Below, piece after piece: positions 8,999-9,454 of a stretch of 64,000 nt of DNA. A program made the position numbers and the translations under genes. Location of the stretch: the sequence record MK234886. One strand, given 5' to 3'. This DNA is from Escherichia phage AnYang. How positions within the stretch are numbered: the stretch's first letter is position 1; each line of letters starts with the position of its first letter. The notes beneath the pieces are model-generated. The model ran no database searches. It saw nothing but the letters and a program-made list of their open reading frames with translations, and was not told the origin of the DNA.

Positions 8999-9454
8999 TT
9001 ATTTTAGGTCTTCAGCCCAGTCGAGCTTCAAGGGTTCTTTATATTCTCTGTCTAAAACAACAGGAATCTGGACATCTCCACTAAAGGTAAGAGGTCCTAC
9101 ATTATAAGACAATGTGATATGAGGGGTGTAATCATCAAAATCGTGCGTAGCACCTAAGGTACGAGCATACTGGTGGCGGCATTTAAGATACTCTGAATTG
9201 AGAACCAATACCAGGACAGGAGAATCACCGTGTTTCCACACTTCAAGATGTCCTGACGAAGCAACTTCAAAACTTCCGGATGCAACGGTGTATGGAACGT
9301 TGACTCTTGAATAGCAGATTGTAGAATGGAATTTTTCACGAGGAACTGGATTAGGAACCTTTAAAGTGCGCTGAAGGTTTTCCAGCGCATCTAAAGTTAA
9401 TTCAGAGAATTTTGCAGCAACGTATAGACCTTGAGCAAAATCTTCGGTTTTCAT
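8999..9454 (-). CDS. 57B: gp57B-like 2H phosphoesterase (Acb1-type cyclic-oligonucleotide phosphodiesterase candidate), 151 aa
   Basis: two H-x-T motifs (HSTICYS, HITLSY); position upstream of 57A-1-3-2-4 as in T4. Confidence 0.7.

Follow-up and report, generated by a model that had tools for sequence, protein, structure and literature searches.

A predicted Acb1-type anti-CBASS phosphodiesterase at the 57B position of Escherichia phage AnYang, a Dhakavirus

We analysed a 64,000-nt stretch of Escherichia phage AnYang (MK234886; hereafter the window), which belongs to a Dhakavirus, i.e., one of the T4-like E. coli phages in the Straboviridae, and whose first 25 kb share ~96.5% identity with phages C6, IME08, and IME341. 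Genes on the minus strand of this region run in the order 4, 2, 3, 1, 57A, 57B, two internal-protein genes, and then trna.4-like and trna.3-like ORFs, an arrangement that agrees with T4; the order 3-1-57A-57B-ip is common to the window, T4, and MX01. The 57B ORF (8999..9454, minus strand), here designated acb1, is intact from its ATG start to a TAA stop and encodes 151 aa. The 57A homolog immediately precedes it and two internal-protein-like genes follow it, which bears out the 57B position assigned to it in the first-pass annotation. Upstream, a tightly packed string on the same strand comprises a gene 3 homolog (10438..11028; tail completion/sheath stabiliser, by PHROG 45 and the MX01 and T4 annotation), a gene 1 homolog (9677..10438; dNMP kinase, PHROG 139, E 1.8e-58), and the 57A homolog (9454..9684; tail-fibre chaperone, PHROG 1002, E 3.5e-26). 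Neighboring genes in this string overlap by 1 nt (3/1), 8 nt (1/57A), and 1 nt (57A/57B), the last as the TAA stop of 57A sharing a base with the acb1 ATG (TAATG at 9454), compared with a 4-nt overlap of 57A and 57B in T4. Such overlapping stops and starts suggest translational coupling, with 57B as the last gene of a coupled string 3-1-57A-57B.

Directly downstream of acb1, a minus-strand gene at 8699..8920 encodes a 73-aa internal-protein-like product (PHROG 8765, internal virion protein, E 1.8e-24) that starts with the leader MKAYQEFITE and whose N-terminus aligns with T4 IPI and with MX01 Ip9 and Ip7. It is followed by a gene for a 90-aa Ip9-type internal head protein (8425..8697, minus strand; PHROG 7673, E 3.5e-56) with the leader MKTYQEFIAE, nearly identical to MX01 Ip9. 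The earlier suggestion that the 57B ORF sits next to IP-like genes thus holds, since both downstream genes match internal-protein PHROGs and carry the T4 IPI-type leader (MK[TA]YQEFI.E). In both T4 and the window, 57B has 57A upstream of it and ip genes downstream, but T4 has ipI after 57B whereas the window has two different internal-protein genes instead. The adjacency of acb1 and ipI in T4 has already been noted as an anti-defence island (Hobbs et al., PMC9117128).

The internal-protein cassette (8425..8920, minus strand) is itself variable, holding the 73-aa protein and Ip9 in the window and Ip9 and Ip7 in MX01, and IME08 and IME341 align to the window in two pieces at the cassette, with an indel of ~210 bp. 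Because the cassette differs between the window and MX01 despite 100% identical Acb1 proteins, a hypervariable anti-defence locus appears to abut a conserved gene. A further gene of this kind may lie elsewhere in the window, where a 202-aa ORF (4695..5303, minus strand) begins with MKTYNEFLNES, an internal-protein-type leader, has a Pro/Lys/Ala-rich middle, and is preceded just upstream by the T4 late-promoter consensus TATAAATA (5332..5339, minus strand). This ORF matches PHROG 2280 ("unknown function") and probably encodes a further packaged internal protein.

Signals that might drive acb1 expression were sought by regular-expression and consensus scans. For a dedicated acb1 promoter, sigma-70-type matches within 8300..12600 were at chance level (15 versus 13.4 expected), the MotA-box pattern TGCTTNA-N10-14-TANNNT had no match on the minus strand, and the closest late-promoter consensus on that strand, TATAAATA, lies at 12411..12418, ahead of gene 4. 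With no convincing acb1 promoter found in these scans, the transcription unit is one that we infer. Expression of T4 57B/acb1 was reported to be predominantly middle/late (transcriptome atlas preprint). Between acb1 and the IP genes, an intergenic element (8953..8986, minus strand) combines a putative early-type promoter with a hairpin. The promoter match, GTTTAC-N17-TACTAT (8986..8958, minus strand), stands ahead of the IP-gene pair and is overlapped by a 10-bp hairpin (~8953..8978, minus strand; -17.9 kcal/mol, z = -4.5) in the acb1 3' UTR, which has no T-run and is therefore not a classical terminator. A near-identical second match, GTTTAC-N18-TACTAT (8422..8393, minus strand), occurs ahead of the trna.4-like ORF (8171..8368), and both matches have TG before the -10 hexamer.

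Several other features of the window were recorded along the way. The late-promoter consensus occurs back-to-back at 12396..12403 (plus strand) and 12411..12418 (minus strand), between gene 4 and an oppositely oriented neighbour that we take to be gene 53 from the T4 and MX01 gene order. The mechanically called gene 4 ORF (11935..12456) extends upstream of its own promoter, and translation probably starts at M25 (MAYSGKF...), the first residue covered by the PHROG head-closure profile. An Rfam scan of the whole window at gathering thresholds returned two tRNAs only, with nothing in or near the 57B ORF and no match to counterparts of the T4 small RNAs rnaC and rnaD. These two tRNA genes, Arg-tct (6226..6300) and Met-cat (7013..7083), both on the minus strand, compare with eight in T4, and between them lies a 221-aa homing endonuclease ORF (6306..6971, minus strand; PHROG 314, E 1.4e-47) whose position resembles that of T4 segB.

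The 57B protein had drawn attention because it contains HSTICYS and HITLSY, and both motifs are indeed present, at residues 43-49 and 112-117 of the 151-aa product, encoded on the minus strand (the strand was missing from the original claim). As a bare pattern, however, the Hx[TS] pair is not beyond chance and is weak evidence: among 20,000 shuffles of the protein, 19% held at least two Hx[TS] and 5% at least two HxT, and at least two Hx[TS] occur in two of the 29 window ORFs sized 100-200 aa. Given a motif pair within chance range, the Acb1 assignment is carried by homology rather than by the motif.

That homology is extensive. The 57B protein matches the Pfam family PF23474 (Anti-CBASS protein Acb1) with 197.9 bits (E 8.4e-59; gathering cut-off 27) over residues 8-149, spanning the full profile (positions 1-144 of 144), while NCBIfam, which lacks a model for this family, returned nothing. 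Against the T4 gene 57B product (NP_049750.1, taken from NC_000866), the founding and biochemically characterised Acb1, BLASTP aligned 128 of 151 residues as identical (85%, no gaps, E 6e-100). The two proteins differ in length by one residue, with 152 aa in T4 and 151 aa in the window protein, which is shorter at the N-terminus, and their substitutions are mostly conservative. A phmmer search of PDB sequences returned a single match, the Acb1 of Erwinia phage FBB1 (7T26/7T27; E 1.6e-58, residues 9-148), to which the window protein is 65% identical over 140 residues. These entries represent FBB1 Acb1 in its apo form (7T26) and bound to a 3'3'-cGAMP analogue (7T27; Hobbs et al. 2022, PMC9117128). 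Both HxT motifs of FBB1 Acb1 align with those of the window protein, and the two would share the 2H phosphoesterase fold by homology, although the loop that follows position W/F74 is one residue longer in FBB1 Acb1, which also carries F for window W73 and Y for window F106, aromatic in either case. A single-sequence AlphaFold2 model of the window protein was too poor for a fold search (mean pLDDT 38, pTM 0.28) and unusable, so the assignment of a compact 2H phosphoesterase fold, implied by the 65% identity to 7T26/7T27, relies on the solved FBB1 structure.

Homologs of the 57B protein are widespread, occurring in 1,469 phage records; in 26 of these the match reaches 99% identity or more, and phage MX01 encodes exactly the same protein as its ORF142 ("57B gene product"; 100% identity). 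The Dhakavirus Acb1 proteins of MX01, IME08, JS98, JS10, and QL01 go unmentioned in the accessible portion of the supplements to Hobbs et al. 2022. Most deposited records of 57B, including the RefSeq records of T4 and IME08, read "RNA ligase" or "hypothetical protein", and among the records inspected only that of Klebsiella phage KLB25 says "similar to anti-CBASS".

Residue-level comparison provides the sharpest view of what has been kept. In T4 Acb1 (whose numbering equals that of the window protein plus one), catalysis is assigned to an HxT/HxT tetrad of H44, T46, H113, and T115, and the H44A/H113A mutant is catalytically dead; ligand stacking is assigned to the aromatics Y12, W74, F107, and W147, the last of which stacks on a base; E141 reads the adenine N6; and Acb1 residues 145-152 make up an ordered lid that covers bound ligand (PMC9117128). 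Misregister of the two histidine motifs with these catalytic residues had been named as the result that would speak against Acb1, and on alignment both fall exactly on T4 H44/T46 and H113/T115. The tetrad of the window protein, H43, T45, H112, and T114, occupies the same alignment columns as that of T4 and also that of FBB1, which places the first catalytic motif (H43-S44-T45) at 9320..9328 and the second (H112-I113-T114) at 9113..9121, both on the minus strand. Likewise, T4 has the same amino acids at the positions aligned to Y11, W73, F106, W146, and E140 of the window protein, so that nine of the nine catalytic or substrate-binding residues named by Hobbs et al. 2022 are kept in register. 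The C-terminal lid is present in both proteins and at full length (KLDWAEDLK in the window, KLDWADDLK in T4), with its segment LDWAEDLK (residues 144-151, including W146, equivalent to T4 W147) encoded at 9002..9025 on the minus strand. Across nine aligned homologs with identities down to 33%, invariant columns include H43, T45, P111, H112, and T114; the seven distant homologs in this comparison (33-65% identity) were FBB1, Phi1, Abraxas (an Acinetobacter phage), D490 (a Vibrio phage), RB16, a Slopekvirus, and SCTP-2 (a Salicola phage).

The statement in the first-pass annotation that T4 gene 57B encodes Acb1 and degrades CBASS signals is confirmed in the literature. Activity-guided fractionation led to T4 Acb1 as the activity that degrades cGAMP, deletion of acb1 removes this activity from lysates, nine further diverse Acb1 homologs all cleaved 3'3'-cGAMP and cAAA, and protection of phage from CBASS in vivo was shown for T4 (Hobbs et al. 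2022, PMC9117128). T4 57B is dispensable on K-12 without CBASS and depleted on a CBASS-expressing host. Moreover, related E. coli phages with intact acb1 were restricted by Panoptes and a relative with disrupted acb1 escaped, and restriction that tracks intact acb1 fits an active enzyme in those related phages.

Two other readings of the ORF have to be weighed against these data. First, the protein could be a 2H phosphoesterase of generic type that acts on RNA ends, either as a 2',3'-cyclic phosphodiesterase or as a 2'-5' RNA ligase of the LigT kind, with a role in RNA repair or tRNA metabolism beside the tRNA cluster. Existing names point this way, as "RNA ligase" is both the description of PHROG 755 and the name given in RefSeq records, and one record calls a homolog "putative RNA 2',3'-cyclic phosphodiesterase"; tRNA genes lie ~2 kb from the 57B ORF; and there is a weak match to Pfam 2_5_RNA_ligase2 (PF13563; 13.8 bits). 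LigT/2'-5' RNA ligase-type enzymes of that family do share with the window protein the superfamily signature, a pair of H-x-[TS] motifs, which in the window protein too would sit on a pseudo-twofold fold, but they act on RNA ends and not on cyclic oligonucleotide immune signals. The PF13563 match, moreover, covers residues 69-122 only, at an E-value of 0.062 and well short of the cut-off of 27 bits, as against 197.9 bits for Acb1. The 85%-identical T4 protein is the cGAMP-degrading activity, which its deletion abolishes, and the window protein retains every one of the base-stacking and adenine-reading residues that are specific to binding of cyclic oligonucleotides. Together these points make an RNA-end enzyme highly improbable. 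Given the Pfam scores together with what is known biochemically of the T4 protein, we reject the "RNA ligase" annotation and do not count the protein as a member of the LigT-type (PF13563) family; the label in RefSeq and PHROG stems from older annotation by 2H superfamily only.

Second, the protein might be an Acb1 with a substrate range that has moved away from that of T4 Acb1 (e.g., sparing cA3 and so avoiding Panoptes-type guards) or with weakened activity, for which one could cite its 23 substitutions relative to T4 Acb1 and the literature describing Panoptes, which senses cyclic-nucleotide depletion, as a selective pressure on acb1; yet none of the substitutions falls on the nine named functional residues, the homologs assayed by Hobbs et al. 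were uniformly active on 3'3'-cGAMP and cAAA, the ORF is uninterrupted, and many isolates carry an identical protein, so that we give this reading hardly any credence. The differences from T4 miss the named functional residues and accordingly lend a shift in specificity no support. It is similarly very unlikely that the Dhakavirus Acb1 variant differs from T4 in substrate range, for instance by having lower activity toward cA3 or toward 2'-linked decoy nucleotides, but if true, such a substrate-shifted enzyme would counter CBASS without tripping Panoptes-type guards.

We therefore return to an Acb1-type anti-CBASS phosphodiesterase, the reading originally proposed for this ORF and one that the Pfam match and the T4 and FBB1 alignments support, with the enzymatic activity extrapolated from characterized relatives. 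By sequence, the ORF is almost certainly the Dhakavirus ortholog of T4 57B/Acb1, predicted to be a small enzyme of 2H-phosphoesterase fold that degrades CBASS signals. It is a canonical, previously described Acb1 ortholog, whose identical protein sequence has already been deposited, and it presents no new biology. By analogy to T4 and FBB1 Acb1, from which we infer its enzymatic activity, substrate range, and anti-CBASS phenotype, the window protein would bind cyclic di- and trinucleotides with at least one adenosine (3'3'-cGAMP as well as cUA and cAAA). The ligand would be held in a U-shaped pocket lined by the stacking aromatics Y11, W73, F106, and W146, with adenine N6 read by E140 and the C-terminal lid shutting over the ligand, and would be strained by Acb1 such that the 2'-OH attacks the 3'-5' bond. 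Residues H43, T45, H112, and T114 may then carry out metal-independent acid-base cleavage 3' of adenosine via a 2',3'-cyclic phosphate intermediate, converting the cyclic signal to a linear product. With the CBASS signal linearised, we propose that effectors would never be activated and that abortive infection would thereby be prevented.

The counter-defence role of the phage enzyme Acb1, degradation of CBASS second messengers, is well described, and recognising the enzyme matters for annotation because most public records keep the "RNA ligase" or "hypothetical protein" label. Its recognition also helps to predict host range, in that a phage with intact acb1 should resist many CBASS types, and should at the same time be vulnerable to Panoptes-type guards that sense cyclic-nucleotide depletion (PMC13577387).
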